From a virus (taxonomy: Duplodnaviria > Caudoviricetes), in the IMG/VR virus record IMGVR_UViG_3300048074_000029, positions 1 to 44,192 of that record: 44,192 bases of DNA; one strand, written 5' to 3'. Below are positions 9,813-41,631 of the stretch, in pieces (positions within the stretch are counted from its first letter, which is position 1; each line of letters begins with the position of its first letter). Below the pieces are notes generated by a model, which did not search any database, had not been told where the DNA came from, and saw only the letters and a list, made by a program, of their open reading frames with translations. The position numbers and the translations under genes are program-made.

Positions 9813-9822
9813 GCCATGGACT
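9803..9822 (+). repeat. 20-bp gene-junction direct repeat (copy 2 at 10002-10021)
   Basis: GGAGGACTAAGCCATGGACT exact at both sites. Confidence 0.95.
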
Positions 9823-10001: not shown

Positions 10002-10014
10002 GGAGGACTAAGCC

Positions 10015-13192: not shown

Positions 13193-13194
13193 GC

Positions 13195-14135: not shown

Positions 14136-14176
14136 ACCTGGCGCCGGATTGACTGGAATAGGGGTAGCATAGAGCC

Positions 14177-14848: not shown

Positions 14849-16020
14849 CCAGGTCCCGCGAGATCTACGGCAAGTACCCCGGCGCCACGTACACGGCCTC
14901 GGGGGAGAGAGAGAAGACCTGGATATTCCCCACCGGCGCCGCGCTCAAGTTCCGGCATCTTGAATCCGACCTCGACGTGGGAGGATACCAGGGCCATCAG
15001 TACACCTGGATCGGCTTCGACGAACTCTCCGAGTTCCCTTCCCCTGGCCCGTACATCTTCATGCTCTCGTGCGCGCGCTCAGCTGCCGGCGCGCCCTGCT
15101 ATGTCCGGGCGACCGGCAACCCAGGCAGGCCCGGCCATGGATGGATCAAGGCGCGCTTCATCGACCCAGCGAAGCCATTCGCTATCTACCGCGACCCGGA
15201 GACCGACCTGACGCGCTGCTACATCCCGGCCCGCCTCGAGGACAACACCCGGCTTATGGAGAATGACCCGGACTATGAGAAGCGGCTTCTCCTCCTACCG
15301 ATGCACCTGCGGAAAGCCTTCCGCCTGGGCGACTGGGACGTTATCGTCGGGCAGGTCTTTCTCGAGTTCCGATGGGAGCGAAACACAATTGATCGCCAGC
15401 CGCTTGACGCGACCTGGGGGAAGTTCTCGGCCCTGGACTGGGGCTACGCGAAGCCGTTCAGCCTCGGCAAGTACGCCGTCAACCAGGACGGCCGCGTCAT
15501 CAGATACGGCGAATGGTACGGGTGCGACCCGCACGACTACAATGTCGGGCTCAGGATGGGCGCTCGCGAGGTCGCGAAAAAGTGGTGGTCACAGTGTATC
15601 GACGACGGGATTACCGTAATTGTCGCGGACCCGGCGTGCTGGTCGAAGGACGACGACAACCCGAGTATCGCCGAGACCTTCGAGTCTGTCGGCTTCACGA
15701 TGGTTAAGGCGAACAACGACCGCCATAATGGGCTCCAGAAGCTCCACGACCTCATGCAGGTAACCGGGCTAGACGGAAAGCCTATGTTCCTCGTGACGAG
15801 GAATTGTACGGCGTGGATCCGCACGGTCCCGAACCTGACGGCCGACCCTCGCGACCCGGAGGACATCGACACCAACCTCGAGGACCACCCCTTCGATGAG
15901 ACGAAGTACGCCCTCATGTCCGAGTACATCCAGAACCCGCGCCGCCTCATCCGTTCCCCCGTGCTCCGCGCCTCCGCAGCCCCCCGCAAGCCCTACGACC
16001 CCCTGAGCCAGCCCCTCTAG
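14638..16020 (+). CDS. terL: Terminase large subunit
   Basis: AAAGGAG RBS before ATG 14638; YGGAKGGGKS Walker A, IGFDE Walker B, TGNPG, LDWGYAKP nuclease motif, DHPFDETKY. Confidence 0.95.
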   Translation: MGEALRAWEPQPRQAQALACPAFELFYGGAKGGGKSDFLLGDFLAGVEEYGEAWKGIIFRRTYKELEEIIARSREIYGKYPGATYTASGEREKTWIFPTGAALKFRHLESDLDVGGYQGHQYTWIGFDELSEFPSPGPYIFMLSCARSAAGAPCYVRATGNPGRPGHGWIKARFIDPAKPFAIYRDPETDLTRCYIPARLEDNTRLMENDPDYEKRLLLLPMHLRKAFRLGDWDVIVGQVFLEFRWERNTIDRQPLDATWGKFSALDWGYAKPFSLGKYAVNQDGRVIRYGEWYGCDPHDYNVGLRMGAREVAKKWWSQCIDDGITVIVADPACWSKDDDNPSIAETFESVGFTMVKANNDRHNGLQKLHDLMQVTGLDGKPMFLVTRNCTAWIRTVPNLTADPRDPEDIDTNLEDHPFDETKYALMSEYIQNPRRLIRSPVLRASAAPRKPYDPLSQPL

Positions 16021-16118
16021 TACGATTTTCACGATTTCCCTCCCGCGTTTTCCACCCGCATAGAACCGCCAACACGCGACAGCGCTACCACTGGGACTGC
16101 CCACGCTACGCGCACCAC

Positions 16119-16255
16119 GGGGGAACGCCCCCTCTAGGCAGATTGCAATCCAAGGAGTAGGAGGAAGGTGGTCCTCCTTACAAGCCGGCGGCGGCCGGTA
16201 AGCCAGAACGGGGCGGTGAAGCGCTGGGGCCTACTACTTCAGCGCCATTCCGCCC
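16119..16255 (+). promoter_or_regulatory. Hairpin-rich spacer between terL and portal
   Basis: GGGGG/CCCCC 16119-32, GATTGCAATC 16141-50, AGGAGG/CCTCCT 16159-78, GCCGGC/GCCGGT 16184-99, GGGCGG/CCGCCC + GCGCTG/CAGCGC 16211-55. Confidence 0.45.
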
Positions 16256-16267
16256 ACTTTCTAAGGG

Positions 16268-17965
16268 ATGCGGATGGAAAGATTCGACGAGAACGTCCGC
16301 GAGCTCATATCCCAGGACTCCGCGCTCACCCAGCGCCGCGAGTCCTGGATCGCCTTGTGGAAGACCATCGCCGATTTCGTCCAGCCATACCGCCAGTTCT
16401 ACGCCCCCGACGACTCCACCCGAGCCAAGGACCTGAAGACCCTGTACAACAGCCGAGGCGTCCTAGCCCACGGGACGGCCTTCGCGATGTTCCAGGCGTA
16501 CACGGCCAACGAATACTCGCAGTGGTTCAAGCTCATGTTTACCGACGCGAGCCTGATCCGGTACCCGGGCGTCGCGGACTGGCTCGAGGAAGTCGAGAAG
16601 ATCCTCTACCAGGTCTTCATGCGCTGCGGGCTATACCAGGCCCTCGCCGAGTACTCGGCCGACCTCCACGGCGTCGGGACCGCGACGCTCTACATGGAGC
16701 GCGGGAAGAAGCCGGGCGAGATGATCTACCAGACCCGCCACCCGCGCGCGCTCACCCTCGCCGAGGGCCCGGACGGCAAGGTGAACACCGTGTTCGAGGA
16801 CGCCTTCATGACGGCCCGGAACGCGGTCGAGCGGTTCGGCGAGGACAGGGTCCCGGAGCGGGTCAAGACCGCCAACGAGAAGACCCCCTACCTGGATGTC
16901 ATCCTAAAGCACTCCGTCATGCCGATGGACAAGAAGTTCCGCTCGTACGCGAAGCGGGACTTCGATCCGCGCATGCCCTACGTCTCGATATGGTGGGACA
17001 AGGCATCCTCGAGCATTCTGGACGTCGCCGGCTACTGGAACTTCCCCTACGCGGTCGGCCGCCGCTCGAAGAACTCCGGGGAAGACTACGGCCGCTCGGA
17101 GGCTATGAACGCGCTCGGCGACATCAAGGGCGCGAACCAGATCACCAAATCCACGATCATGCTCGCCCAGCTCATCGCCGACCCGACCTTCTTGGCGAAC
17201 GAGGAGCTCGAGGGCCGCGACGAGGTTATCCCCCACGGGCGGGTATACACATCGGCGAACGACACCCGCTTCGAGCCCGTCGAGCTCGGGGCGCATTACC
17301 CGATCACCACCGACCGCGAAGAGCGAGTCGACGCCATCATTAACGAGCACTTTTTCATCCCGTTCTATGCCGCGATGGCCTCGATCGAGGGCGGGCCCGT
17401 CCGGTCAGCGACGGAGATCGTCGAGAAGATCGGCGAGAAAGCCGCCGTGCTCGGGTACCTCACGGGTCGGCATCACACCGAATGCCTCCAGCCGGTAATC
17501 CGAAACACCGTCAATGCCCTCATGCGGGACGGGCTCCTGCCCTCGCCCCCGCGGATCGTCCTGGACGCCTACCAGGCGAACGTCGGGCTCGACATTTCCT
17601 TCCGCGGGCGCCTGTCGCAGATGCAGGCGCGGTACTTCCAGTCCGACGCGATCACCGCGACCGCCGCGCTCATGGCCGGCGCCGCCCAGCTCTTCGGCCC
17701 CGAGGCCCTGGATAACGTGGACTCGGACGAGTACGTCCGCGAGGGCCTCGAGTCCGTCGGCGCGCCGCAGAAGGTCATCCGCGAGATGCCCGACGTGGAG
17801 GAGCGGCGCCGCCAGCGCGCCGAGGCCATGGCCGCCCAGCAGCAGCAGGCCATGCAGTTCCAGAACCAGCAGGCAATCCTCCAGAACGCCCAGGGCCTCG
17901 GCCAGAAGCCGCAGCCGGGGAGCCCCCTCGAGGAGATGGCGGCCGCGGCGGGAGGCGCTCGATGA
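16268..17965 (+). CDS. Portal (head-tail connector), podovirus type
   Basis: Follows TerL; WFKL, GTATLY, FPYAVGR...GEDYGRS..MNALGD, RSATEI motifs of T7/BPP-1-type connectors. Confidence 0.93.
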   Translation: MRMERFDENVRELISQDSALTQRRESWIALWKTIADFVQPYRQFYAPDDSTRAKDLKTLYNSRGVLAHGTAFAMFQAYTANEYSQWFKLMFTDASLIRYPGVADWLEEVEKILYQVFMRCGLYQALAEYSADLHGVGTATLYMERGKKPGEMIYQTRHPRALTLAEGPDGKVNTVFEDAFMTARNAVERFGEDRVPERVKTANEKTPYLDVILKHSVMPMDKKFRSYAKRDFDPRMPYVSIWWDKASSSILDVAGYWNFPYAVGRRSKNSGEDYGRSEAMNALGDIKGANQITKSTIMLAQLIADPTFLANEELEGRDEVIPHGRVYTSANDTRFEPVELGAHYPITTDREERVDAIINEHFFIPFYAAMASIEGGPVRSATEIVEKIGEKAAVLGYLTGRHHTECLQPVIRNTVNALMRDGLLPSPPRIVLDAYQANVGLDISFRGRLSQMQARYFQSDAITATAALMAGAAQLFGPEALDNVDSDEYVREGLESVGAPQKVIREMPDVEERRRQRAEAMAAQQQQAMQFQNQQAILQNAQGLGQKPQPGSPLEEMAAAAGGAR

Positions 17966-26983: not shown

Positions 26984-29148
26984 TGGCCCGCTTCGCCCCC
27001 GGCAACCTCGGCCAGACCATGCAGCGCGCGGGCGCCGCGCTCGGGAACCTCGGGCAGACCGTCTTCGACATCGAGGCCGAGGAGCAGTTCCGGACCGGGC
27101 GCCTCGCCCTCGTCTCGAGCCTCGAGAAGTTCAAGCAATCCCTATGGCAGGACCCGGACTACGGCACCCCCGGCCAGGGCGACGGCTACGTCGGCAAGTT
27201 CCAGGAGTTTATGCAGGGCACCAAGGGCCAGCCCGGCGCGGTCGGCGCGACGATCAGCGGCCTGTCGAACGTAATGGCTCAGGGGAAGCTCGACGAGTAC
27301 GCCAAACAGCTCGAGCTCGAGCAGGGCGCGGAGATAGAAGAGCTTCAGTTCAAAAAGTGGGCGGTCGGCACGGTAGCGAAGAGCGACAAGCGCATCCTGA
27401 CGCTCGCCGACTCCCTCTCGGGGCAACAGTTTTTTGACGCCATGGCCGACGAGCTCGAGACCCAGCGCGGGCACAACCTCATCGACGAGCCCGAGTACGA
27501 ACGCAAGGCGTATGAGTTTTCGCAGGTCGCCATTAAGAAAGGGCTGAAGAAGGGCGCCCTCGCTGCGATGGACTCGGCCGCCGATCCATTCGAGGGCTAC
27601 GCCGCGGCGATGAAGTATATCGGCGAGAATTCCGAATCCTTCACCGCCGGCGGGGGAACGTTCACCGCCGGCGAACAGGTCCGGGAAGCCGTCTCGACCG
27701 ACGTAAAGGCCGAGTACGCCATGCGCGAGGCCGCCTTCCAGAAGCGCGGCGAGGAGTTCCTATCCTCCTACCAGACCCAGCTCGACACCGACCCGGAATC
27801 GATCATCTCCGACGTGTCCGCCGAACTAGCGAAGATCGAGGGCCAGAACATCCCAAAGGCCGCCAAGGATAAGGCGACCATGGCCTTGTGGAATCACAAC
27901 GGCGATGCGCTTTACTCCTATAGCTCCAATCGAATCTCGAGCGCTCAGACCCTCGGCGACCTCACCGGGACGCTTCAGTTCCTCCAGGATTCCGGGGCGC
28001 TCTGGCAGGGCAAGCGCCAAGAGCAGGACCGCGCCAGCCTCATCTCGCAGGTCCGCGGGTTGATCGCAGAGCGGGAGCGCGCTGGCGCCGGCGGAGACGA
28101 CAAGGACGTGAAGAAAGCCACGTACGGCATGAAAATCCTGAACGCCAAAGAATCCGTACTTCGGAAGGATATGCCCTCGGAAGAACTCAAGCGCGGGGCT
28201 CGGGTCGAGATCATGGGCTACGGATGGGAAGCCGCTAGCCTCGGGATCGACATCTCCTCCGACATCAACTCGGCGCTCAAGGAGCTTGGAGTAATCACGC
28301 CAAAGGTTGCCGCATCGCTAGACGCGTACGAGGCCATGTACCTGAAGGCCGTTTTCCCTGGGGACAAGGCTCCCGATAAGAAAAAGTTAAGCATTCAGCA
28401 AAACCAAGAACTCGTCAACTTCACTGACACTATCCTCCGCATGGGCGACGAGGGGACAAAGAGGCAAGAAGAGATCGACGCCTACATCGAAGGGGCCCTT
28501 CGAGATCAGACGATAGGCGCCTTCAAAGCAATGCGCGAGGACAAGCTCGGCGGCACGACACTGACGACGGACACGATGCTCGACGCGGTCGGGCTCATCC
28601 AGAGCGGCAAGCTCGCGAACCAGATGCCTGTGGTCGCCGGCCGCCGGATGGTCAACCCGACGATCGACGCGAACGTCAAGAAGGCCGAGGACTACATGGG
28701 CGGCGAGATCGTGAAGCTCGGCTTCACCGATATCACGCCGAAGCCGCAGCCGGACGGGTCCTACGAGTTCGCCGCGAAGCGCCCGGGTCTCGCCCAGCCA
28801 TACCGCCTGAAGCCGCAGATCGACCAGGAGACCGGGAAGATGGTCCTCCAGGAATACATCCAGTCGCGGAAGGCATGGGAGACTTGGAAGAACCCCGCCA
28901 CGGGAGCCGCGGTCCAGATCACCCCGAAGGCCGAGGCACCGCAAGAGAAGGACCGCGAGGAGATCAAGAAGATCGTCTCCACCGGAGGAGATGACCCCGC
29001 GATGATCGCCAACCAGTTTGTAAACGCAATCCTTGGCGGCCGACTGAACCTTCGGTCCGTCCTTACCGCCGGGCCTACCCTTGGAAAATTCGCCGACCTT
29101 CTGCCTCAGCTTGTCTCGGAAGAGTATGAGCGAAGGACTCAGCAGTGA
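26983..29148 (+). CDS. Internal virion (ejection) protein
   Basis: 721-aa helical protein between the small and giant ejection proteins. Confidence 0.7.
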   Translation: MARFAPGNLGQTMQRAGAALGNLGQTVFDIEAEEQFRTGRLALVSSLEKFKQSLWQDPDYGTPGQGDGYVGKFQEFMQGTKGQPGAVGATISGLSNVMAQGKLDEYAKQLELEQGAEIEELQFKKWAVGTVAKSDKRILTLADSLSGQQFFDAMADELETQRGHNLIDEPEYERKAYEFSQVAIKKGLKKGALAAMDSAADPFEGYAAAMKYIGENSESFTAGGGTFTAGEQVREAVSTDVKAEYAMREAAFQKRGEEFLSSYQTQLDTDPESIISDVSAELAKIEGQNIPKAAKDKATMALWNHNGDALYSYSSNRISSAQTLGDLTGTLQFLQDSGALWQGKRQEQDRASLISQVRGLIAERERAGAGGDDKDVKKATYGMKILNAKESVLRKDMPSEELKRGARVEIMGYGWEAASLGIDISSDINSALKELGVITPKVAASLDAYEAMYLKAVFPGDKAPDKKKLSIQQNQELVNFTDTILRMGDEGTKRQEEIDAYIEGALRDQTIGAFKAMREDKLGGTTLTTDTMLDAVGLIQSGKLANQMPVVAGRRMVNPTIDANVKKAEDYMGGEIVKLGFTDITPKPQPDGSYEFAAKRPGLAQPYRLKPQIDQETGKMVLQEYIQSRKAWETWKNPATGAAVQITPKAEAPQEKDREEIKKIVSTGGDDPAMIANQFVNAILGGRLNLRSVLTAGPTLGKFADLLPQLVSEEYERRTQQ

Positions 29149-32100
29149 GCGATCCCTACGAGACCCCGCTCTCGCGCTTCGAGGAGGGCGAATTCCAGAA
29201 GTGGAAGCAGAAGTACGCCCCGAACGACTCCGGCTTCGACTACGACCTCCGCGGCGCCTTCAAGGCCGGGGTCACCCCCGACCCGGCGACGGGCAAGTGG
29301 CCGGACACCTTCAAGAAGCCGAGCAACCCGACCTTCTCCGCCGGGAGCCAGTACAGCACGCTCGCCCCGCCCGCCGAACCGAAACCCGCCGCTTCCCCCA
29401 TCCCCGCCCCGCCCTCCGCGGGCGCGGCCCTCGCACAGGGGAAGGCAGCCGCGCTCTCCGCCGACAGGGCGCCGGGCGCCGCCGGCGCCGCGCTCGCGCA
29501 GGGGAAGGCACAGGCCCAGGCCGCCGAGGAGCCGTACAAGGAATTCGCCGTCCAGCATCCGGACCTGATCGATATCGACCCGGCCGAGTACGACCTCATC
29601 AAGCAGCACGCTCTCGCCGCGAACCCGGACAACCCGGAAGACGAGCTCTATAAATGGGGCACGGCGTTCGCCTTCTCGAAGATCATCCCAGGCACCCAAC
29701 CCGAAGACCTGATCGGCCAGGTCGACAAGCTCACCGAATGGTACACGGGCAAGAGCCAGACCCCGAAGTCGAACTACCGAGCCGTTGCGGACTCATGGCG
29801 GCTCGGCGAGGCCATGTCGAAGTACAACAACCTCGGCGACGACCTCGGAACTCTCGAGGCTCAGCTCGAGGACGCGCTCTCGTCCGGCGACCACCAGGCG
29901 TATTATGCCCTCGTCCCGCAGATCGAAAAGATCAATAAGGACATGGCCGATCAGTACCAGTTCATGGGCCAGCTCGAGGACGCCTACCCCCGGCCGCTCG
30001 GGATTGACCTTCTGAAGGCGGCCGCCGTCTCCGCGCCGTTTACGCTCAAAGCGGTAGTCTCGGGCGCCGCCGCTGGCGCCGTGACGGGCGGGCTCGGAGG
30101 CGGAGCGGCTCTTGTCGGGCTCGTGGCAAAACTCGCCTCGTCCGCCGCGACCATTAAGGAGATAGCGGGCGCCTCGTACCTCGCCCTCCGGGAGTCCGGG
30201 GTCAACCCGCGGCTGGCGCGGGACCTGTCGTCCTTCCTCGACGCCCCCCTCCAGTCCGCTATCGAAACCTCCCTCGGCGAGACCGCGGGCTACCTCGGGC
30301 GCTTCGCTGGAGTCGGGAACCTGTCGGCGAAAGTCGCGCGGCGCATGATAACCCAAGGGACGTGGGGCGCGGTCGGGGCTTCGATCTACCAATACGCGAC
30401 GGGGATCGGCGGGGAGGGCGCGGAAAACCTTCTCCAAGGGCTTTCGACCAATGGAATGAAGGCTATCGCGTCCGTCCTCCAAGAGGAAGGCGTCGAACTT
30501 CCAACGGCCGAAGCGGTCGCCCGTCAAGCGTGGAGCGACTTCTCCACCGGCGTCCAGGGCGCAATCGTACTCGGCGGCCCCGGCCTTGTGATCGACATAA
30601 AGCGCAACGTCCGTGCGGCGGACACTGTCCAGGCCACGAAGAAGGCCCTCGCCACCGAGGAGAAGCCGGAGGCCACCCCGGAGCCCGTCGCAGTCGACGC
30701 CGCAGCTTTCGCCAATCGCGCAGCCGAGCCCCTGCCCGCCGGGACCGTTATCCAGGCCCGCGAGGAGATCGAGGGCGAGCAGTACATCTTGAAGGCCGGG
30801 AATAAGGACTCCGGGGAGCGCGCCGGCTTCGTCCGCTACGAGCTCGACCCGGAGACGCAGACCGCGCGGATCCTCGGATTCGAGAAGGCGGAGCCGAACG
30901 TGCAGGCGTTCCTCGTCCGGGGCCTGGCCGCGCGGCTGCCGGGCTGGAACATCGAGATGGAGCCGAAGACCGGGAGCCAGACCGCCCTCCGGGACTACCT
31001 CATCGCGCAGAACCCCCGCGGCCCGGAGGCGGGCCTTCAGTACAACGAGGCGCCGGCGGCCCGCGTGGACCGCGTGACCGAGGACTACGTGCGCGAGCGG
31101 CTCCAGGAGGTCGCCCCGGGCTGGCAGAAGCCGGACGTGGACCTCGCCGTGAAGGTCCTCCCCATGTGGGCCCGTCGAATGGGCATGACCGGCTCGGAGC
31201 TCGCGGACGCGGCGCTCTCCCGAAACGTGTTCGGCCAGGTGTACAACAAGTCCGCGGCCGCCCAGGCCGAGGGCCCCATCCCCGCCGGCGCGTTCCTCCC
31301 GGTTCGCGAGGGCGAATGGACCCGCGGGCTGATCGACATGGCGCCCAAGGCCAACCCGTCGACCGCGATCCACGAAATGACCCACGCCGTCGTCAACTTC
31401 GCCCGCCAGGCCCGCGAGACCCCCCAGGTCGCGCAGTTCCTCCAGGAGCTCGAGGGGGCCCTCGGCGTCGAGAACGGCAACTGGGAAGCGGAATTCGCCG
31501 GATGGACCGAGGAGTACGCCCCGGCGCGGAACATCGAGAAGACGCGCCAGGACCGCCCTCTCTCGCTTTCCTACCTCGAGGCCCTGACCTACGGCCTCGA
31601 GGACTACTTCGTCACCGGTAAGGCCCCGAAGCCGGAACTCGAGGGGCTCTTCCGCAAGCTCGCCCAGTGGATCCTCGACATCTACGAGGGCATGAAGGGC
31701 GCTCGCGTGAAGATGAGCCCCGAGATGACGGCCTACTTCGACGACCTTATCGGCGGGGAGGGATCGCCCTTCCTTGAAGGCAAGGCGGGCCGTAGCGAGG
31801 CCGACCTCGCTATCCGCGACCGCGAGCTCGGCCAAATACCCCCGGACGCGCTGGAGGCCCAGGAAGGCGCCCCCGCGGCCGCGCGCGAGGAGCGCCGCGG
31901 CATCGCTGGAGCACGTAGAGACCTGTCCTCCGCGCGCGAGCGCATCGCTGCCGGCGAGGACGCCGAGGCGGTCGCACGTGAAACAGGATGGCGCGAGCAG
32001 AACGGCGAATGGCGCCAGGACCGCGCTTTCCAGAGCGCCCCTGAGTACGAGACCGACGAGCGCGAGCGCGCGGTCCAGGAGGGCAAAAGCGCCGAGGGCG

Positions 32101-35100
32101 CGCCGGAGCCCCTCGGCCCCGCGGTCTTCACCGAGAAGGCGTACCCGGCCGAGCCCGAGCAACTCTACCAGGGCGAGGCGGAGCGGGCCGATACGTCGAG
32201 CCCGGAATTCCGCGCGTGGTTCGGCGACTCGACGGTGGTCGACAAGGCCGGTGCGCCTCTCGTCGTCTACCACGGAACGGGCTCAGTGTTCGACGCGTTT
32301 GATCCCACAAAAGCCCGAGACATCGGCATGCATTTTGGGACGAAAAGCCAGGCAAAGAAATTTTCAAATGATCCGGGCGCCTACTACCTTTCAGCGAACA
32401 CCGGCGAAGGAATACTCCCTGACGTATTCTCAAATAAAGATCTCCATTTCTCGGATATTGCCTATGAACTCTACGACGAAGATCTCATCACCATAGATCA
32501 ACGAAAGATCCTCGATGATAAATTTGATACCCCTTATTATCGCGACATGCGAGATCGTGCCACATACGAGGATGATAGGGACGGAGGCGATTTCTGGGAA
32601 GAATACCAAAAAGAACAACGCAACTTCTGGGAGGCCGCAAAGGCTTTGCTTCTCGAAAATGGCGTAACCGGCATCAAGTATGAAAACAAATTTGAAGGGA
32701 GAGGTTATTCTTATGTAGTCTTCTCTCCCTCCCAGATTAAGAGCGTCTTCAACCGCGGGACGTGGGATCCGAACGACCCGCGGATACTCTACCAGTTCGA
32801 TTGGGGCCGGAAGATCCCCACCGAGGAAGGCGCCGGCCAGGCCGCGGTCGATGCGCTACTCGAGGCGAAGTACGGATACGCCGGCCGGATCATCTATCGC
32901 CCGGAGGTCGGATGGCTCGACCTGCCATGGGGCAACATGGGAAATATCGACAAGGACTTCGCGGGCGGAGCCGGGCTTGAGCACATTTGGAAGAAGCACG
33001 AGGAGACCGACCACGTCATCAGCCAGATCGCCAAAATAGCGCAGTACGGCAGGATGGAGGCCGAGCCGGGAAGAAATGATCGGCGGCGTCTATTCATGGG
33101 CCCCTACCGGATGGTCATCCAGCTTGCCCGCGACAACGGAAAGCCCGCGCCGTGGATCGTGACCGCTTTCCTGGAGGAGAAGAAGAGAAAAGGGACGCTT
33201 GCGGCTGGTGGTAACGCGACCGACACAAGGGGTTATACCCCAAGCACCCCCAGCCAGCCCACGGGAACCGCGGGCCTCGCCTCGTCTATTCCCGAGGCTC
33301 TGCCTGGAGATGTCCCCCCAGGCGCCCCCGAGCGGACTCCCTCGGCGGGCAAGCGTAAGCTCATAGTACGCTCGAAACCCGCTCCCGGCAAGACGCTGGA
33401 CCAGAACGACATCAAGCCGCCCGAATCAGGCGGCGGGGCCCTCTTCCAGGGCGACCGCGGCGTCGGAACCGTCGTCTATACCTTCCCGGAGGACCTGAAG
33501 GGCTACTCGGATATCCACTCGCAGGCCCAGCTTCCCGCGAGCATGAACGTCTTCGGCCGCGGCGTTGTGGCCCCGTCCGGCGAGATTCGTCTCGGAAACG
33601 CTGGCAGCTCGCACGTCGGTCTCGCCTCGGGCCTTCAGGACGCGAAGCGGTTCTATTTCGGGTACTCCCGCGAGAAGAAGTCCGTCTACGTCGTCGCGAA
33701 GAACGGCATGGATACCGACTACCTCCAGAAACCGGCGGTGCTTCAGCGGATACTCTCGCAGGTCTTCGACCAGTACCATCTCTCCGTGGCCGGGCGGCTT
33801 CAGTTCGCGGACGCGCTCTTCCAGGGGGAGGCAGAGGAGATCGGCGACCTCGTGGCCGTCCACAACATCAACGCCTCGAAGCTCGCCTTCGCGGACAAGC
33901 TCGGCGGGCTGGCGATGCCGTCCCTCGCAGTCATCAATCGCAAGATCCCCTTCGAATCGTTCGGCGACATTACCCTAGTCGCCCCGAAGACGCGGATCGA
34001 TCCGAAGGTCAACCCGGGCGTAAAGGTGTTCAACGCGGATATCTACTCGCCCAGGTATCCGTCCCTCGAATATAAGATCGACGACAAGAAGCTCATGCCG
34101 ATCGCGGAGAAGATCGCCGATGCGCTCACGCCACTTTATGCAGAGCAAAACCGGAAGCCGAGCAAGTACACAATTGCCGAGAACCTAAAAGACCGATTCA
34201 ATCGCCACGGTCTCGAAGACATAGAATATGACCGGGACCTCGTCGCGTACTGGCGATCCGTAGTTGACAAACAAAAAAGTGCAAAAAAGAAGCTGGTCGA
34301 TTATAAAATCCAGACAGGATCAGAAGAGGAACGATTTATCGTATGGGCGAAAGAAACCTTTGCCCCGCTCCTCGATAATCCCCAGATGTTCAAGGGCTAC
34401 ACGAACGCCGGGAACCGCCGGTATGCCCCGTACACCCTTGAAAACGTCGCCGCGGAGATGAAAAAGGCGGGACTCCAGGGAGGCGAAGGATTCAACTACG
34501 GGCTCCCATCCATCCGCGCGGTCGTCGCCAAGGAGTATAAGTCTCTCGAGGTGATGAAGAAGGACAAGAACAAAATCCTGTCCGACGAGGACTTCGAGAA
34601 AGCGAAAGAGGCGACGGGCACTCTATTTGACGAAATACTGACCCTCGCAGGGGGCAACTCCTCGCGCTTCGTGGACAACCTGATCGAGGGGATACGGCGC
34701 AAGAACATCCGCGCCGAGCTCGAAGAGTTCGGATTCCCCGGCCTGACAGACGAGACCTACGAGAAGATCAATATCCTCATCCAGGTCCTCCGCGACATGC
34801 CGACCGAATACTTCGAGGCCAAGATCAAGGGGACGCTCTCGCTCCAGTCGTTCTATGGGGCCGTCATCCCGCAGTCAGCAGACGCGAAGACCCGCGAGAT
34901 TCTCGACCGCAACGGCATCCGAATCGAGGAGTACAAGGACCGGGACAAGCAGGACCGCGCCGCGGCGATCACGCGCCTCGCTATGGCCCTCGGGCCCGTA
35001 GACATCCTCTTCCAGGGCGAGGCCCTCGCCGACTCCCAGACGCGCATGTTCCAGGGCGACGGCGGCGACGAGGTCGGCGTCTCGACCCTGAAGGACATCG

Positions 35101-38100
35101 CCCGGAGCTTCCCCTCGTGGGAGGAGTTCGCCGCGTTCATCGACGGGACGGACTTCCACGATGCGGACGAGCCCCAGGACCTCGGCCCCGCCGCGCGGAT
35201 GGAGTGGTTTAAGGCCGCATGGCAGGCCGCCCGCGAGCAGAAGCCCGTGGACCTCGAGGACTGGACCCGCCGTCTCGAGGCGGACAACTACTCGGGCCTC
35301 ATCGACTTCCTCGAGGGAATTTGGAACGAGATCCTCCTGCCCTCCTCCATGCGCGACCTTCAGGCCGAGGACATGGAGGGCGTCGATCGGATGCGGGAGA
35401 TGAAGGGCGAGCTCGCCGAGACCATCGTCGCGGGCGCGCAGCGCGTCGGGACCGGGCGGCGAGACTTCGACCCGCGCTTCCTGCGGTCCCTGGCTGGCAC
35501 GATCCGCAAGAACCCGGAGGAGTACGCCCGCATCTACGGCGAGGTCATGGCCCAGCCCGAGATCGGCAAGCTCGGGGCGGCGCGGGAGCGCGAGAAGTAC
35601 GCCGACATCAAGGACCCGAAGATATTCGAGCGAATGAGCATTTCGCAGAAAGCCGTCCTTCGCGAGCGGATCAAGGACGAAGAATTCGGCGCGGCCATCA
35701 TGTCCGGGAAAGTCCAGATGGACGAGAAGGCCCTCGAGCACATCAAGAAAATGGCGGCCGACCAGAAGGCCGCGAAGAAGAAGATCGCCGCGCTCGAGAG
35801 CGAGCTGAAGGCGGCCGAGGGCGGGCTCTCCGCTTCCGAGCGCCGGCTCGCGGCCGCGCGCGCCGAGGCCGCCCGGACGAGCCAGGAGATCGGCCGAACC
35901 CGGAAGCGGATCGAGCGCTTCCTCGCGAAGGGCCAGAAGGTCCCCCGTGGCTACGAGGAGAAGCTCAGGACCCAGGAGCAGCGGGCGAAGGCCCTCCGCT
36001 CCGCCCTCCAGCGCGCCGGCGACTTCGAGGCCCTGACCGCCCAGGCAAAGGCCCTGGACGCCCGGCTCGAGCGCATCGCGGCCGCCGAGTCGACCCCGGA
36101 TCTCCTCGCCCTCCGCTCCCGCCTCCAGTCCGAGCGCCGGGCCTTGGAGCCGAAGCTCGCGGCCGCCGGCGAGAAGTGGAATGACCTCCCGGGCCTCCAG
36201 ACCTACCTCGTGAAGGCCGAGGCCCTCGCCAAGGCCCAGGAGAAGTACCAGACCCGCGACGCCGAGCTCCGGGCCCGGAAGAAGCTCCGGGCCGAGTTTA
36301 CGCGGCTCTCGAATATCATCATGCTCGAGCGCCGACGCAAGCAGACCAAGGATAAGCCCGCAACGATCAACGTCACCCAGGCCAAGGCGATCGCGCAAAT
36401 ACAAGACCTCCTCGACCCGCACTTCCGATCCGAGAAGACGCAGGCGCAGATCGACCAGCTCCGCGCCGAGCTCGAGGCGAACCCGGAGCTCTCCCGCGAG
36501 ATCCCGAAGGAGTGGCTCCGCCGGGCAACGGCGAAGAACCTGAACGAGATGAGCCTCTCCGAGCTTGAGGACATGGCGCGAAAGGTCCAGAACCTCCGGG
36601 CCTTCGGTCGGGCCGTGAAGAAGGCGCGGGACCGGGAGCGCGCCGAGCGCGCCGAGCGCCTCGCCGCCGAGATTACCGCCACCATGCGCGGCGGCCGCGG
36701 CTTCAAGCCCCCGACCGGCTACGATCCGGAAAAGAGCTTCCTTGAGCGCTGGCGCGACCGGCTCCGGGGAACCGATTACGCCTGGCTCTCCATGCGCCGC
36801 TTCTCGAATTGGATGGATGGCGGGAAGGATGGCCTGAACGTTGAGATACTCCACCACGAGATGAACCGCCACTATAACGAGGAGATGCGGGGCATCGACC
36901 GCCGGACGGCCGCTATTCTGAAGGCGTTCGCCGACGCGGGCGTGAAGCCGGAGGACTGGTACGCGCAGACCGTGGACATCGTGGGGGCATTCCCGGGCGG
37001 CGCGACGAAGCCGCTGCGGAAGTCCGACCTCATGGCGCTCGAGATGGCCTTCCGCAACGAGGACAGCCGGGCCGCGGCCCTGTACGGATGCTTTTTCTCC
37101 GAGACCGAGCGCAAGGCCCACGGCCCCAAGAAGCAAGGCGGCGATGGCGACCTCGATTGGTTCGACGCCGAGGGGGCGAAGCGCTTCGAGGCCATCCGGA
37201 AGGCGATCGACTCCGTCCTCACCCCGGCCGACGAGCAAGTCCTCTTCGCCTTCGCCCTCGATGCTGAGTCCGCGGGCTCACGCCTGGCTGAGGTAGTCGC
37301 CGCGGTGGAGAATCGCATCTTCGCGTTTGTCCGCAATTACTTTCCCATTTTCCGCGTAAACGCCGTCAATGAGCCGACCGACGTGCAGATCACCGGGGAC
37401 GTGTTGAACCGGACCGCGGGCCTCCGCCGGCCGCCGAAGAACGGATTCACGAAGAGCCGGACCACGATCCCGCCGTGGAGCCAGACCGAGATTAAGCTGG
37501 ACCTCCTCACCACGTGGCTGTCGGCGATCCAGTCCCAGGAGCATTACCTCGCGACGGCCGAGTACGCGAAGAAGCTGGACGCGGTCTACACGAACGAGCT
37601 CATGCGCGAGCACATCCGCGGGCTCCTCGGGGATCCGGGCGTCGAGTACGTCAAGGAGTACATCACCGAGGTCAAGAATCCGGGCAGTAACCAGAACGTC
37701 AAGCGCTGGGATCAGGCGATCCGGTACCTCCGCGGCAACCTCGGCGCCGCTTATCTCACCTTTCGCGCCTCCTCGACCTTGAAGCAGATCCTCACGAATG
37801 GCTGGGCGTCCCTGCCCTACGCGGGCCCGCGCGTGCTCTCCGAGTCATTCAAGTGCATGGCAAACCCGGTGAAGTATCTCCATGAGACCGAGGCATTGAG
37901 TACATACCTAAAGCACCGAACGCGAGACCTTTCCTATCAGGCAATTAAGGACGCGAAGGCGGCCTCGGGCCCAGCAAAGGCGCTCCTTGCGGCGGAAAAA
38001 ATCGGCGTGAGGGGCCTCGAGCTGGCCGACCGCTTCCCAGTGGCGATCGCTTGGAGGGCGTGCTTCGAGAAGGCCCTCGTCGAGTTCAAGGGCGACGAGG

Positions 38101-38711
38101 TGAAGGCGATCGAGAAGGCCGACGACCAGATCCAGAAAAGCCAGCCCTCCGCCCGCGGCGTCGACCTTGCGCCGATCTACCGCGAAAAGGGCGAGGCGAT
38201 GCGGCTCCTTTTGCAGTTCACTATGCCCCTGAACGTAGTCTGGCAGAACATCCGCTACGACCTTCCGAACGCGATCAAGAATCACCAGTACAGAACGGCG
38301 ATCGGTATCATGATCAGCTACGCCATGGTAGGCGTCATCCTCAACGCCCTCACATCGAAGGCGCCGCCCCCGGACGAGACCGACGAGCAGAAGCGGAAGC
38401 GGCTCGCCTTCTGGGTGCTCTCCCAGGGCACCGACGCGCTCCCGCTCGTCGGTGCTGACGCGACGCGGATACTCCGCCAGGTCATCACGGGGGAGAAGGC
38501 ACCCACCTTCCCGGACACCGCGCTGCCGGGAATCCAGGGGATCTTCGACAGCGTCAGCCAGCTCACGGAAGGCGACCTCGAGCAGGGCCTTCAGAAGTTC
38601 GCCCAGGGCGCCGGGATGATCCTCGGTGTACCGGTCTCGGGCGTTAAGGAACTGATCCGCGCAGGAGAGGGCGACCTCGGCGCCCTGATAGGAAGACCCC
38701 GTGCCGACTAA
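29145..38711 (+). CDS. Giant polyvalent ejection protein (zincin HExxH, LPD23-like, ART-like, BECR RNase-like and unknown modules)
   Basis: 3188 aa; STAIHEMTH; ARETGW...GEWR; FRAWFGDS.VVD..G.PLVVYHGT; GWLDLPWG...GAGLEHIWKKH; DLVAVHN...LGGLAMPSLAV. Confidence 0.85.
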   Translation: MSDPYETPLSRFEEGEFQKWKQKYAPNDSGFDYDLRGAFKAGVTPDPATGKWPDTFKKPSNPTFSAGSQYSTLAPPAEPKPAASPIPAPPSAGAALAQGKAAALSADRAPGAAGAALAQGKAQAQAAEEPYKEFAVQHPDLIDIDPAEYDLIKQHALAANPDNPEDELYKWGTAFAFSKIIPGTQPEDLIGQVDKLTEWYTGKSQTPKSNYRAVADSWRLGEAMSKYNNLGDDLGTLEAQLEDALSSGDHQAYYALVPQIEKINKDMADQYQFMGQLEDAYPRPLGIDLLKAAAVSAPFTLKAVVSGAAAGAVTGGLGGGAALVGLVAKLASSAATIKEIAGASYLALRESGVNPRLARDLSSFLDAPLQSAIETSLGETAGYLGRFAGVGNLSAKVARRMITQGTWGAVGASIYQYATGIGGEGAENLLQGLSTNGMKAIASVLQEEGVELPTAEAVARQAWSDFSTGVQGAIVLGGPGLVIDIKRNVRAADTVQATKKALATEEKPEATPEPVAVDAAAFANRAAEPLPAGTVIQAREEIEGEQYILKAGNKDSGERAGFVRYELDPETQTARILGFEKAEPNVQAFLVRGLAARLPGWNIEMEPKTGSQTALRDYLIAQNPRGPEAGLQYNEAPAARVDRVTEDYVRERLQEVAPGWQKPDVDLAVKVLPMWARRMGMTGSELADAALSRNVFGQVYNKSAAAQAEGPIPAGAFLPVREGEWTRGLIDMAPKANPSTAIHEMTHAVVNFARQARETPQVAQFLQELEGALGVENGNWEAEFAGWTEEYAPARNIEKTRQDRPLSLSYLEALTYGLEDYFVTGKAPKPELEGLFRKLAQWILDIYEGMKGARVKMSPEMTAYFDDLIGGEGSPFLEGKAGRSEADLAIRDRELGQIPPDALEAQEGAPAAAREERRGIAGARRDLSSARERIAAGEDAEAVARETGWREQNGEWRQDRAFQSAPEYETDERERAVQEGKSAEGAPEPLGPAVFTEKAYPAEPEQLYQGEAERADTSSPEFRAWFGDSTVVDKAGAPLVVYHGTGSVFDAFDPTKARDIGMHFGTKSQAKKFSNDPGAYYLSANTGEGILPDVFSNKDLHFSDIAYELYDEDLITIDQRKILDDKFDTPYYRDMRDRATYEDDRDGGDFWEEYQKEQRNFWEAAKALLLENGVTGIKYENKFEGRGYSYVVFSPSQIKSVFNRGTWDPNDPRILYQFDWGRKIPTEEGAGQAAVDALLEAKYGYAGRIIYRPEVGWLDLPWGNMGNIDKDFAGGAGLEHIWKKHEETDHVISQIAKIAQYGRMEAEPGRNDRRRLFMGPYRMVIQLARDNGKPAPWIVTAFLEEKKRKGTLAAGGNATDTRGYTPSTPSQPTGTAGLASSIPEALPGDVPPGAPERTPSAGKRKLIVRSKPAPGKTLDQNDIKPPESGGGALFQGDRGVGTVVYTFPEDLKGYSDIHSQAQLPASMNVFGRGVVAPSGEIRLGNAGSSHVGLASGLQDAKRFYFGYSREKKSVYVVAKNGMDTDYLQKPAVLQRILSQVFDQYHLSVAGRLQFADALFQGEAEEIGDLVAVHNINASKLAFADKLGGLAMPSLAVINRKIPFESFGDITLVAPKTRIDPKVNPGVKVFNADIYSPRYPSLEYKIDDKKLMPIAEKIADALTPLYAEQNRKPSKYTIAENLKDRFNRHGLEDIEYDRDLVAYWRSVVDKQKSAKKKLVDYKIQTGSEEERFIVWAKETFAPLLDNPQMFKGYTNAGNRRYAPYTLENVAAEMKKAGLQGGEGFNYGLPSIRAVVAKEYKSLEVMKKDKNKILSDEDFEKAKEATGTLFDEILTLAGGNSSRFVDNLIEGIRRKNIRAELEEFGFPGLTDETYEKINILIQVLRDMPTEYFEAKIKGTLSLQSFYGAVIPQSADAKTREILDRNGIRIEEYKDRDKQDRAAAITRLAMALGPVDILFQGEALADSQTRMFQGDGGDEVGVSTLKDIARSFPSWEEFAAFIDGTDFHDADEPQDLGPAARMEWFKAAWQAAREQKPVDLEDWTRRLEADNYSGLIDFLEGIWNEILLPSSMRDLQAEDMEGVDRMREMKGELAETIVAGAQRVGTGRRDFDPRFLRSLAGTIRKNPEEYARIYGEVMAQPEIGKLGAAREREKYADIKDPKIFERMSISQKAVLRERIKDEEFGAAIMSGKVQMDEKALEHIKKMAADQKAAKKKIAALESELKAAEGGLSASERRLAAARAEAARTSQEIGRTRKRIERFLAKGQKVPRGYEEKLRTQEQRAKALRSALQRAGDFEALTAQAKALDARLERIAAAESTPDLLALRSRLQSERRALEPKLAAAGEKWNDLPGLQTYLVKAEALAKAQEKYQTRDAELRARKKLRAEFTRLSNIIMLERRRKQTKDKPATINVTQAKAIAQIQDLLDPHFRSEKTQAQIDQLRAELEANPELSREIPKEWLRRATAKNLNEMSLSELEDMARKVQNLRAFGRAVKKARDRERAERAERLAAEITATMRGGRGFKPPTGYDPEKSFLERWRDRLRGTDYAWLSMRRFSNWMDGGKDGLNVEILHHEMNRHYNEEMRGIDRRTAAILKAFADAGVKPEDWYAQTVDIVGAFPGGATKPLRKSDLMALEMAFRNEDSRAAALYGCFFSETERKAHGPKKQGGDGDLDWFDAEGAKRFEAIRKAIDSVLTPADEQVLFAFALDAESAGSRLAEVVAAVENRIFAFVRNYFPIFRVNAVNEPTDVQITGDVLNRTAGLRRPPKNGFTKSRTTIPPWSQTEIKLDLLTTWLSAIQSQEHYLATAEYAKKLDAVYTNELMREHIRGLLGDPGVEYVKEYITEVKNPGSNQNVKRWDQAIRYLRGNLGAAYLTFRASSTLKQILTNGWASLPYAGPRVLSESFKCMANPVKYLHETEALSTYLKHRTRDLSYQAIKDAKAASGPAKALLAAEKIGVRGLELADRFPVAIAWRACFEKALVEFKGDEVKAIEKADDQIQKSQPSARGVDLAPIYREKGEAMRLLLQFTMPLNVVWQNIRYDLPNAIKNHQYRTAIGIMISYAMVGVILNALTSKAPPPDETDEQKRKRLAFWVLSQGTDALPLVGADATRILRQVITGEKAPTFPDTALPGIQGIFDSVSQLTEGDLEQGLQKFAQGAGMILGVPVSGVKELIRAGEGDLGALIGRPRAD

Positions 38712-40428
38712 GCCGACGAAGAAATACGTATTCGACGGGGACGCCGAGTTCCACGGCGCTATCCAGGCCCGAGGCGGCGTTAACGACCCTAAGGCTGCGG
38801 CCAAGACGCGGGCGCTCGAGGCCAGACTCTCAAGGAACGAAGCCGCCTCGGCCCGCGCCCAGGCGTCCGCGTCCGTTCTGGACGCCCAAACCGCGCTCGC
38901 GGGTGTACGGCTTGAGTTGTCCACGACCAACGTCTCGGTCTCTCGCGCGGGCACGTACTTCCCCGCCGCGATCACGGCCCGGGCGAAGGCGATCGACGGC
39001 GCCTCGTACTACGGCCGGTTCATCATCGCGACCTCGGAGGACGCCAGCACCTGGACTGACCGCTACACCTCGGCGGCCGACGAGAGCTTGCATGCGTACA
39101 CCTTCACGACGGGCGTCTACGTCCGCGTCCGCCTATATGAGAAAGGCGGGATCGGGAACCTCCTTCGGGAAGCGATCATCACCGTCACCGAGGATGTATC
39201 AGCGACGCCGCTGTACTGGGGGCCAAGAACCACGCCTCCCGCTTCGAACTTCAAGGAGGACGACTACTACTTCGACTCGAACGTTCCGGCTTCGGGCGGC
39301 GGCGTCATCCGGTACTACGACGGCTACTCATGGGAGGAGATGACCTCCGCGCACCCGCTCTACCACACGGCGATGGGGAATATAGACATGCTCGCCGATA
39401 TGTGCGAATGGGCGACCAATCAAGCGACGGTTATCGCGGCGGCGACGGCTATCGTACAAAAGCTAGTCGCCTCGGATGCACTTATCAAAAATCTGTATGC
39501 GCTAAAAGTAAAAATACAGCCGGGGGGGAGCCTACGCGGCGGAGATAGATATGATAAAGATGGCGCGATTATTGACCCAGACGAACCCGGGTTTTATTTA
39601 GGAGCCGACGGAGTTCTGGAAGCAAAAGATGTAAATTTGTCGGGATATATTGAGGCCGATTCGGGGAATTTTTTGGCATCAATAAATACCCCTATTATAC
39701 AGGCGCTCCTCGCATCTAACGTTGCGCCATGGACCGCTCCGTCGCCATCATGGCTTGGCTCTGTCCTCATAGCTGCGATGGCTAGTATTATAGATCGGGG
39801 TATTGTACGAGCCACTGGCGTATTTGGTGGGAAGACAGTGGTAGCTATCGAGGTACATAGCACATCTGGCTTCGTCTGGTTTAGCGACCATACTGGTTTT
39901 GTTTTTATGGCCGCCACTACATACACAATCCAAGGGACTATTGATCCATCTGCGGATGGAGAAGTACGCATAAATGGTCCGCTGCTGCCATTCTTGGACG
40001 CAGTGCCTCTTAGTATAGGAGCTAGCGATAATAGATTTAATAATATTTATGCGAGTTATCTTGATGTTGTTAATGGCGTATATGCTGCCGGAGACATCGT
40101 AACGACCCATAATGTCCATGCGACTGAATCAATATATTCTTTTGGAATGCATGATGACACGGTTGGAAACACATGGAAGACTGTATGTTCCCTTCCTGCG
40201 ACTACCCCAAACGCTATAGGTTTTTTGGGCTATTGGGATTCCTATCTTGGATCGGCGGTTCGCCTTACGTTTGCTGTTATGTTTGGAGTTCTAAAAATAC
40301 TTACTTACGATGGCGATATTGCAGACTATGTTGACTACATCAGGGTAAATAGCAACAACCTTCAATTCAGAAACTACGGATCGTCCGGGCATGTGGCATC
40401 TATTTCCGGGATCAAAATGCCGGGGTAG
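38701..40428 (+). CDS. Tail fibre / receptor-binding protein
   Basis: After the ejection genes; beta-rich; low-GC C-terminal half from about 39460. Confidence 0.7.
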   Translation: MPTKPTKKYVFDGDAEFHGAIQARGGVNDPKAAAKTRALEARLSRNEAASARAQASASVLDAQTALAGVRLELSTTNVSVSRAGTYFPAAITARAKAIDGASYYGRFIIATSEDASTWTDRYTSAADESLHAYTFTTGVYVRVRLYEKGGIGNLLREAIITVTEDVSATPLYWGPRTTPPASNFKEDDYYFDSNVPASGGGVIRYYDGYSWEEMTSAHPLYHTAMGNIDMLADMCEWATNQATVIAAATAIVQKLVASDALIKNLYALKVKIQPGGSLRGGDRYDKDGAIIDPDEPGFYLGADGVLEAKDVNLSGYIEADSGNFLASINTPIIQALLASNVAPWTAPSPSWLGSVLIAAMASIIDRGIVRATGVFGGKTVVAIEVHSTSGFVWFSDHTGFVFMAATTYTIQGTIDPSADGEVRINGPLLPFLDAVPLSIGASDNRFNNIYASYLDVVNGVYAAGDIVTTHNVHATESIYSFGMHDDTVGNTWKTVCSLPATTPNAIGFLGYWDSYLGSAVRLTFAVMFGVLKILTYDGDIADYVDYIRVNSNNLQFRNYGSSGHVASISGIKMPG

Positions 40429-40465
40429 TACCCCGTCTCAGGCTGGAATACGTAAGGGAGGCGCG

Positions 40466-41152
40466 ATGAAGTCCGACAAACCGAGCAGAACTACGCGACG
40501 AACAGCCAAGCCGGACTTCATTCCCCTCGATCCCCGCTATGTCCTCGATCGTCTCGCGATTATGGAGAAGGATCAGGCCGACCACCGCGAGTACCAAAAG
40601 AAAGAGGCCGAGATAGCCGCCCGAACCGCCGCGCAGCGGGACCGCGAGATGCTCTCCTCCATCGAAAAAGCGGTAGGGGCCGCGGTCCGCGAAGCATCCG
40701 CCGGTCAGGCGGCCTTTCTCGACGAGCGATTCGGACGCCTGGCTGCCGAGGTTAAGCTGATCGTGGAGCCCCTCCGCTCATGCATCGACGAGGAATCCCG
40801 ACGCCGCGAGCTCCTCGAGGCGGAGGTCCACCAGATACCGGACCGCGAGGAGTTCGAGCGATTCGTTAAGCATGAGGATGCGGACCGGCATGACCTCGAA
40901 TTACAGATCACAGGGGTAGCCGCAAGCTTTCGCTCAGAACTCTTCGACGACGGTGGGGTCGAGCCGCGACTCCGCGCCGTTGAGGACGCAATCCCTAAAG
41001 AGCTCGACGAGCGACTCCGCGCCGTTGAGCAGACGCCCGGAAGAACCGTTCTCACGATCGCGGGGGCCGTAGGGGCAACGGCCCTCACCATCAAGGGGCC
41101 GGCTATTTTCGAATGGCTCAAGCATCTCTTTTCGAAAGGAGTAGCGCCATGA
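40466..41152 (+). CDS. Coiled-coil protein with C-terminal TM segment (lysis module)
   Basis: AAGGGAGG RBS; TVLTIAGAVGATALTI; precedes the endolysin. Confidence 0.65.
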   Translation: MKSDKPSRTTRRTAKPDFIPLDPRYVLDRLAIMEKDQADHREYQKKEAEIAARTAAQRDREMLSSIEKAVGAAVREASAGQAAFLDERFGRLAAEVKLIVEPLRSCIDEESRRRELLEAEVHQIPDREEFERFVKHEDADRHDLELQITGVAASFRSELFDDGGVEPRLRAVEDAIPKELDERLRAVEQTPGRTVLTIAGAVGATALTIKGPAIFEWLKHLFSKGVAP

Positions 41153-41631
41153 GTCGCAGACTCGATCAACTAGCCCAAGCCCCGCAGGAGGCCGCGAAGA
41201 AGGCCCTCGCGGAACTTGAGAAGCAAGGCGACGCCGTTTTCGTAGACTCCACGCGCCGCCTCGACGCAGAGCAGGTGTCTCTTTACGCGCAGGGCCGCGA
41301 GCCCCTCGCCGTCGTCAACGCACTCCGCGCCGCTGTCGGGTTCTATCCGCTCACCGAGGAAGAGAACAAGCGGATCGTCACCAACTGCGACGGCGTGAAG
41401 ATCCGCTCGGCCCACCAGGACGGCAGGGCCCTCGACGTGGTGCCCGCCGTGAACGGAAAGCCGGTCTGGCCCGTTGCATCCGATCCCCGCTGGCGAAAGA
41501 TAGCCGCGGCGTTCACGGCCCAGGGGTTCACCTGGGGCGGGGACTGGGACGGCGACGGTAAGACGCGATCGGACGGCGACCTGGACGAGAAATTTATTGA
41601 CTATCCGCATTACGAGTGGAGGAAGAAATGA
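41149..41631 (+). CDS. Endolysin, M15-family (L-Ala-D-Glu-type) peptidase
   Basis: R...EQ..LYAQGR, SAHQDGRALD (SxHxxGxAxD), WGGDW, DYPHYE. Confidence 0.93.
   Translation: MSRRLDQLAQAPQEAAKKALAELEKQGDAVFVDSTRRLDAEQVSLYAQGREPLAVVNALRAAVGFYPLTEEENKRIVTNCDGVKIRSAHQDGRALDVVPAVNGKPVWPVASDPRWRKIAAAFTAQGFTWGGDWDGDGKTRSDGDLDEKFIDYPHYEWRKK

Follow-up and report, generated by a model that had tools for sequence, protein, structure and literature searches.

Border tags of the form hydrophobic-Leu-Phe/Tyr-Gln in phage polyvalent proteins, and their candidate processing by a scaffold metallopeptidase

The closest described systems are the polyvalent proteins of phages, a published class for which self-processing by a metallopeptidase (MPTase) domain has already been suggested (PMC5512222, PMC9503650); Iyer et al. 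proposed autoproteolytic release by this domain in 2017 and drew the analogy to RNA-virus polyproteins (PMC5512222). We analysed a gene of this kind in the phage record IMGVR_UViG_3300048074_000029 (Caudoviricetes), a DNA of 44,192 bases with an estimated completeness of 75%, the whole of which is called the window below. The gene encodes a large protein that, like those of Iyer et al., occupies a virion slot and joins an MPTase with ART-PolyVal, PBECR1, PBECR5 and LPD23 domains:

29145..38711, + strand, polyvalent-protein gene, a single open reading frame (ORF) of 3,188 amino acids (aa)

ART-PolyVal, PBECR1 and PBECR5, three unrelated conflict domains, match above the Pfam cut-off within this one polypeptide, and the gene lies within the virion morphogenesis block, downstream of genes for portal, GP7 capsid and tail and of a T7 gp14-like gene. 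The main text of Iyer et al. names no cleavage site or linker motif (the strings 'LFQ' and 'linker' each occur 0 times), and no published cleavage site was found in the largely non-subscription literature searched. Unlike that account, the present analysis describes a tag, exchange of cassettes at the tag and tag dialects tied to the protease. A conserved scaffold appears to hold a variable row of enzyme-like cassettes, each ending in hydrophobic-L-[F/Y]-Q, and we consider it probable from sequence comparison that the HExxH protease of the scaffold cuts these tags and thereby frees the cassettes.

The structural block of the window runs from terminase through T7-type portal, scaffold-like gene, GP7 major capsid, tail proteins, a T7 gp14-like gene (a weak assignment, E 6e-4) and a 721-aa gene to the 3,188-aa ORF. 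Bbp10 of phage BPP-1 (epsilon15 group), described by Hardies et al. as a homologue of T7 internal virion protein D (PMC4819975), occupies the same slot after portal, GP7 capsid, tail tube and T7 gp14-like gene, and its protease belongs to the same clade. By this synteny, the 3,188-aa ORF would fill the third internal-virion slot (T7 gp16 or IVP-D type) of a podophage structural block, and because of both the slot and the homology to Bbp10 the protein is likely to be carried in the head and to leave it together with the DNA. Scaffold homology to Bbp10 extends no further than the protease and some weak matches at the C-terminus; the cargo of Bbp10 is short and lies before the protease, whereas in the window protein the protease is followed by four cassettes.

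Picornaviral 3C and potyviral NIa (TEV) proteases are chymotrypsin-fold cysteine proteases that cut Q/G or Q/S, and their sites are likewise hydrophobic-x-aromatic-Gln tags punctuating a polyprotein. In the present family, unlike those viruses, the position after Q is unconstrained and cleavage would fall to a zincin-like enzyme; no chymotrypsin-fold protease was found among the 19 ORFs scanned in Pfam and the 17 scanned in PHROGs of a window that is about 75% complete. Integron and polymorphic-toxin systems gain, lose or replace whole modules at fixed joints. The family described here differs from them by the lack of a DNA-level site, by several internal cassettes in one frame and by joints that are defined by peptide.

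Tags and cassettes of the window protein

The initial annotation had proposed seven peptides as boundaries of cargo modules behind the protease motif HEMTH. All seven, and HEMTH itself, were recovered in place in the one ORF, and six of the seven are real tags, with AFQS as the exception. The parts of the protein are as follows.

29145..31034, + strand, N-terminal scaffold with a Gly/Ala-rich hydrophobic segment at aa 309-327; no border tags
31035..31784, + strand, zincin-like MPTase with HEMTH at 31371-31385, Ser739 at position H-4 (31359) and the third ligand Glu812 in EALT (31578)
31914..32015, + strand, partial LPD23-like stretch, below the Pfam cut-off and still joined to the protease
32025..32036, + strand, AFQS, probably no functional tag, possibly a decayed one
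32163..32174, + strand, tag 1, Q-LYQ-G
32172..32795, + strand, cassette 1, ART-PolyVal ADP-ribosyltransferase-like, 208 aa, Pfam E 1.2e-11, cluster K0 (32 members)
32787..32798, + strand, tag 2, I-LYQ-F
32796..33449, + strand, cassette 2, PBECR1 predicted RNase, 218 aa, Pfam E 9.5e-09, cluster K8
33441..33452, + strand, tag 3, A-LFQ-G
33450..33824, + strand, cassette 3, no Pfam family, 125 aa, with tag-bounded relatives in L010 and L015, cluster K12
33816..33827, + strand, tag 4, A-LFQ-G
33825..35015, + strand, cassette 4, PBECR5 predicted RNase with a long C-terminal part, 397 aa, Pfam E 1.8e-24, cluster K14
35007..35018, + strand, tag 5, I-LFQ-G
35046..35057, + strand, tag 6, R-MFQ-G, 13 aa after tag 5
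35055..38711, + strand, C-terminal scaffold with a coiled-coil-like stretch, the last 600 aa conserved, with one hydrophobic segment; no border tags

The pattern [LM][FY]Q occurs six times in aa 743-1975 compared to a shuffle mean of 0.37, a count that 0 of 20,000 shuffles reach, and [LM][FY]QG occurs five times across the entire protein where 0.08 are expected. None of the seven Gln residues (0/7) lies inside a Pfam-matched stretch. At the place of AFQS the two closest relatives read SFTS and EFRS, and at about the same place 3 of 14 aligned relatives (P0019, P0021 and P0022) bear a true LFQG or LYQG. The doublet of tags 5 and 6 is retained in P0002/P0003, P0004 and P0006.

The cargo list drawn up in the initial annotation stands for the ART-like and BECR RNase-like modules, and one of its two unassigned modules is PBECR5; the bracketing of an LPD23-like module by tags had to be given up, as the match is weak and partial (21.2 bits compared to a Pfam cut-off of 27) and no tags bracket it here. 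Some cargo is indeed GC-poor, with 0.52 for the ART and 0.57 for the PBECR5 cassette versus 0.66-0.68 for the scaffold and 0.64 for the remaining two cassettes. The PBECR1 cassette ends in a long Pro/Ser/Thr-rich linker (33195-33440), and a related tail precedes tags in P0002. An ESM Atlas lead for cassette 3 as a phosphodiester-glycosidase (NAGPA), at 0.90, was not accepted, its recognition being below the tool's mark.

In the window, [LM][FY]Q is absent from the capsid, scaffold and second ejection proteins, and a head-maturation-type signal was rejected since capsid and scaffold protein have no tag. The portal contains three [LM][FY]Q matches.

The tag and cassette exchange across the family

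Relatives were collected by two protein searches, yielding 51, and by locus scans, yielding 117 long genes and 68 once near-copies were removed; L052, L105 and L005 were dropped because they are distant or do not have the protease in the same ORF, leaving 65 genes including that of the window. The gene of L005 consists of two ORFs (8168-11134 and 11138-17836) with one stop codon between them, past the protease part, which may reflect a split gene, read-through or an error of sequencing. For a profile of the C-terminus, 22 of 23 genome matches lie in spirochaete bins, and the closest match (46%) is a Syntrophobacteraceae bin. The genes share a layout of N-terminal scaffold, HExxH domain near aa 700, hypervariable middle and conserved C-terminus, and we define the cargo region as reaching from HExxH+110 to 1,000 aa before the protein end.

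In these 65 non-redundant genes, [ILTVM]L[FY]Q is found 160 times in the 77 thousand aa of the cargo region versus 4 times in the 111 thousand aa outside it, and no last residue other than Q gives more than 10 matches inside. For the strict pattern L[FY]Q there are 198 matches in 77,156 aa inside versus 29 in 111,421 aa outside. LFQK/IYQG-like strings of the protease's last helix, which lies outside the cargo region, are regular-expression matches and are not counted as tags. The enrichment at domain borders in homologues that the initial annotation had named as a check was found: in the non-redundant set (37 of 45 proteins), a homology start lies close to 94 of 167 tags and a homology end close to 81 (null means 34 and 30). 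With the tags masked, a homology start lies ≤10 aa after 180 of 257 tags and a homology end ≤10 aa before 129 of them (null means 56 and 50).

The tag also stands at borders predicted out of sample. Of 111 additional proteins, 16 were removed because they were near-copies; in the remaining 95, cassettes without their last four residues were used to predict borders, which gave 158 borders in 67 proteins. The final residue is Q in 141 of these, the preceding one F or Y in 139, and both together form an exact [FY]Q at 128; I, L, T, V, M or F stands four back in 150, and the third position, mostly L (99 borders), is looser than the others. The tag consensus is hydrophobic-L-[F/Y]-Q. The residue after Q at the 257 sites is T in 47, G in 39, E in 31, L in 29, P in 8 and S in 6 cases, and Pro follows Q at 12 of the 158 out-of-sample borders. 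Gly after Q is therefore not general (15%), and the picornaviral Q/G analogy drawn in the initial annotation fails. Doublet tags 11-27 aa apart occur in the family, and some ART cores begin 2-4 residues past Q.

Cutting at the tags yields 161 segments of ≥80 aa in 51 clusters, some of them merged as a consequence of single linkage, and 57 genes display 55 distinct architectures. Cluster representatives match ART-PolyVal, PBECR1/3/5, LPD3, LPD23, RadC, GGDEF, GNAT and MuF-C; 24 of the 51 clusters have no Pfam match at E 0.01. Cluster K2 (20 segments, e.g. L066:6191-7015) combines LPD23 with a HEIQH-type metallopeptidase as a travelling cargo cassette distinct from the scaffold protease. Being present in only part of the family, these cargo-type proteases cannot be the general tag reader.

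Exchange was followed in ten groups of near-identical genes, five of which are without large internal difference; 10 large events were counted by eye in the other five. Both ends lie at tags in six of them (insertions in L066 and L027, replacements in L026/L027, L082 and L130/L131, and a deletion in L037/L046) and one end in another (L123). Breakpoints of near-identical pairs fall at Q+0/+1 and at Q-2 to Q-6, and in exact swap events the parent sites have about 5 to 12 bases in common. Cassette exchange uses the tags as its principal joints: whole cassettes are gained, lost and replaced there, as the initial annotation had supposed, and other joints exist beside them. Contigs of four public runs contain no joint that skips a cassette at the tags, which is uninformative since contigs drop rare forms. 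A second level of swapping is seen in L026, L027 and L061, where the ART core (about aa 949-1148 of L026) is replaced between a conserved VYH start and QIKSA tail. In the L031 cluster (aa 853-1026) and in L038/L123, an exchangeable module directly after the protease is tagless at both ends.

The scaffold metallopeptidase and tag dialects

HEMTH and EALT of the window protein form a gluzincin-type pair of HExxH and a downstream E-x-x-A/F/T/S/G, the second motif corresponding to the ExxT pattern of PMC7213743. All 61 of 61 aligned domains share the residues H743, E744, H747 and E812, and the catalytic Glu is invariant in 238 of 238 profile-matched domains. The protease profile matches 12,015 clusters at 50% identity, of which the best 150 were examined; Pfam metallopeptidase matches are weak and confined to a few members. 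A loose AAQ-G stands directly before the protease's first strand in many members (31248-31290 in the window; alignment A4), and other scaffolds have a hydrophobic-x-Q before the protease (LLAQ in Jess A, LLNQ in AF); a site at this place could free or inhibit the protease.

Two lineages carry E or H in place of Q. Eight LLFE/FLFE tags occur in P0174, whose protease, used as a query, led to P0191 (six E-type tags), P0192 (nine LFE-type tags), P0193 (four LFH and one LYQ) and P0230 (five LFH); the cargo regions of the E-type proteins contain no Q tags. Several E- and H-type tags stand at borders of cassettes shared with Q-type genes. On the protease tree each type forms one clade (support 0.914 for E and 1.0 for H), and since kin share traits the dialect evidence amounts to two events. 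Too few tags for typing are present in 64 of 148 de-replicated domains, and P0095, which a loose pattern had marked as E-type, is Q-type by its homology-defined borders. Neither the C-terminus nor P0174, each used as a single query sequence, found a match in locus searches, and the E- and H-type genes are known from protein alone.

Among 41 columns conserved in 79 Q-type domains, three are rare in all E-types and eight in both H-types, and only H-4 is rare in both groups. It is K, R or L in the E-types and H in both H-types, compared to S in 60, T in 9, N in 5, V in 4 and R in 1 of the 79 Q-types. The shape and depth of the S1' pocket of the matrix metalloproteinase MMP-1 depend on residue 214, four positions ahead of His218 (PMC7290392, PMC7650666). 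Carried over from MMP-1, H-4 of the MPTase may likewise shape the S1' pocket, which would suggest the switching residue as P1' and place the cut before Q. If cleavage occurs, we lean slightly towards a cut between F/Y and Q rather than after Q. With cuts after Q, 38 of 257 sites would give pieces that start with L, F, Y or W, and the free residue at this position, Pro included, agrees with a cut before Q. N-terminal Gln is stable under the bacterial N-end rule.

The protease clade also occurs on other scaffolds with tags at the cargo borders, in P0123 (four tags), P0106, P0050, P0051 and P0010. Among the eight named phage records examined, Rhodobacteraceae phage MD07 has six tags after the protease in the part of the gene that was translated, and Bbp10 of BPP-1 has two F/Y-Q tags around a cargo-like stretch. 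Judged by eye, the site just before the protease is looser (LLAQ in Jess A, RFDQ in UFJF, PLRQ in DC33, LLNQ in AF and AYNQ in Carin1). The database labels 'crystallin beta/gamma motif' and 'lysis protein' on HExxH-protease proteins (NC_005357.1 bbp10 and relatives) look misleading.

Self-cleavage and alternative readings

In the proposed mechanism of self-cleavage, the protein would be ejected as a large channel-forming component, and its scaffold protease would cut the tags in cis or between copies, either after ejection or late in the head. Q would sit in the S1' pocket and every freed piece would begin with Gln; the predicted pieces of the window protein are 108, 24, 24, 14, 45, 1.5 and 137 kDa. 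ART-, RNase- and other cassettes would then act in the cell ahead of phage gene expression. Short homology at the tag codons and selection for intact tags would keep swaps in register: swaps would pile up at tags because the 5-12 shared bases permit in-frame crossovers and only products tagged on both sides release clean enzyme. Comparison partly supports this reading, which the initial annotation had put forward, by family-wide border tags, exchange at them, the invariant protease (61/61) and the joint change of the tag and a presumed pocket position in two lineages.

A number of observations speak against self-cleavage. The N4 virion RNA polymerase, which also bears an MPTase, is packaged uncut, and it purifies at full length (PMC13492108); the MPTase of ArdC is described as dispensable, with no substrate found (PMC7213743). 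Tags can be lost, since the first tag after the protease is present in 13 of 14 aligned relatives and missing in the window; 30 of the 158 predicted borders deviate from exact [FY]Q, and 3 of the 10 large exchange events have neither end at a tag (one inside an ART core, two in the linker after the protease). The link between dialect and protease comes down to two lineage events, and in a control 6 of 44 nested Q-only clades, which represent two lineages, likewise have a rare residue (N or V) at H-4; P0137 has Arg at H-4 alongside Q tags. P0191 reads EESFH for HExxH yet retains its six tags, which means either an alternative ligand or a point against the mechanism. Two AlphaFold models (pLDDT 83-84) did not confirm the zincin fold: they show only helices where the three-stranded sheet in front of the active-site helix should lie, and their confidence is low at model residues 70-90. 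Four fold searches with the protease models gave no clear match (best Z 5.6 and 5.3), the putative metal-dependent hydrolase 3dl1 standing among unrelated rows at Z 3.8 and 4.3; a profile search of PDB sequences with the protease gave nothing relevant, and ESM Atlas only unnamed clusters. A complex prediction for the protease (alignment A4), zinc and a 33-aa peptide with tags 5 and 6 scored 0.01 and is uninformative in either direction.

The tag might instead stay uncut and serve as a binding or handling signal, with cassette ends that dock on the scaffold, perhaps in a protease-like cleft, or are recognized while the protein is packaged, unfolded or threaded along the ejection channel. The enrichment, border and dialect data fit any phage-encoded reader, P0191 keeps its tags despite the altered first zinc ligand, and N4 virion RNA polymerase and ArdC stay whole. 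We nevertheless judge this reading unlikely: the catalytic Glu and the zinc ligands are invariant, doublet tags at their short spacing better fit redundant cut sites than docking, and the start of some ART cores shortly behind Q resembles a freed N-terminus.

Somewhat less likely again is that another protease, from the host or a separate phage gene, cuts the tag and the MPTase acts elsewhere, e.g. on a host protein or the cell wall. A change of host could also switch all tags of a lineage, the tags resemble 3C and TEV sites, and for the gp47 metallopeptidase of phi24B an action on peptidoglycan has been proposed in a preprint, by assignment without test. The same tag, however, accompanies this protease clade both in phages with a spirochaete assignment and in those with a proteobacterial one, the dialect switch goes along with a presumed pocket position of the MPTase, and in the window [LM][FY]Q is missing from the capsid protein, the scaffold protein and the second ejection protein.

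That the tag is the mere translation of a DNA recombination site, an integron-like joint with no function in the protein, appears very improbable. Recent swap breakpoints do fall within tag codons with their few shared bases, the codons of Q, E and H are one base apart, and some codon counts are raised: TTC at tags is observed 132 times versus 102 expected, and codon sharing between sites of a gene is 348 versus 311 for Gln, 205 versus 193 for F/Y and 102 versus 99 for Leu, small excesses that may stem from exchange between sites. Yet synonymous positions vary at background over genes of GC 37-65%, with CAA as Gln codon at 73 of the 257 sites versus 74.5 expected and all six Leu codons in use, and the bases that are tolerated conform to the split codon boxes, where F and not L, Y and not stop, and Q and not H are selected. 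The constraint therefore acts on the peptide and not on a DNA site. No inverted-repeat structure that pairs the tags was found, and neither conserved synonymous bases nor a palindrome marks a site-specific cassette joint. The near-identical DNA of the tag copies in the window (three copies of 17 nt at 88-94% identity), which the initial annotation had pointed out, is explained by the strong codon bias of the gene, with CTC, TTC/TAC, CAG and GGC preferred, and not by a dedicated repeat.

An origin by chance, or as the common structural end of a single domain family, is ruled out for practical purposes, although the largest family (ART-PolyVal, 32 of 192 segments) has a conserved tail that includes the tag: 51 different cassette clusters end in it, and the enrichment, the shuffles of the window protein and the out-of-sample borders all contradict such an origin.

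Elsewhere in the window, GC drops to 0.54 at 38701-41152 (a probable tail-fibre C-terminus and the next gene), which suggests a recently swapped host-range module. A DUF1351 protein lies at 984-1961, a D12-class adenine methyltransferase at 6024-6827 and an M15 peptidase endolysin at 41113-41631.

New here are the tag with its statistics over >130 proteins, the recent swaps with exact breakpoints, the test of codon usage and the dialects with Q, E and H; MPTase self-cutting of polyvalent proteins, a proposal since 2017, now comes with an exact tag and predicted fragment sizes. In its widest form, which we put forward tentatively and at somewhat less than even chances, the proposal is that self-cleaving ejection polyproteins are widespread: a zincin with a polar S1' pocket would cut hydrophobic-L-F/Y before Gln, the effectors would start with Gln, a 12-base joint would serve at least 51 cassette types, and lineages would have been re-keyed between Q, E and H. 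The putative natural specificity variants predict which enzyme would cut which tag, and a sequence-specific zinc protease with switchable specificity could serve as a reagent. The tags would also explain the in-frame shuffling of unrelated enzymes within an essential virion gene. If the widest form is true, the tag becomes a search rule that excises candidate anti-defence effectors with exact ends, 24 of the 51 types being without Pfam match, and would delimit dozens of candidate early-acting phage effectors.

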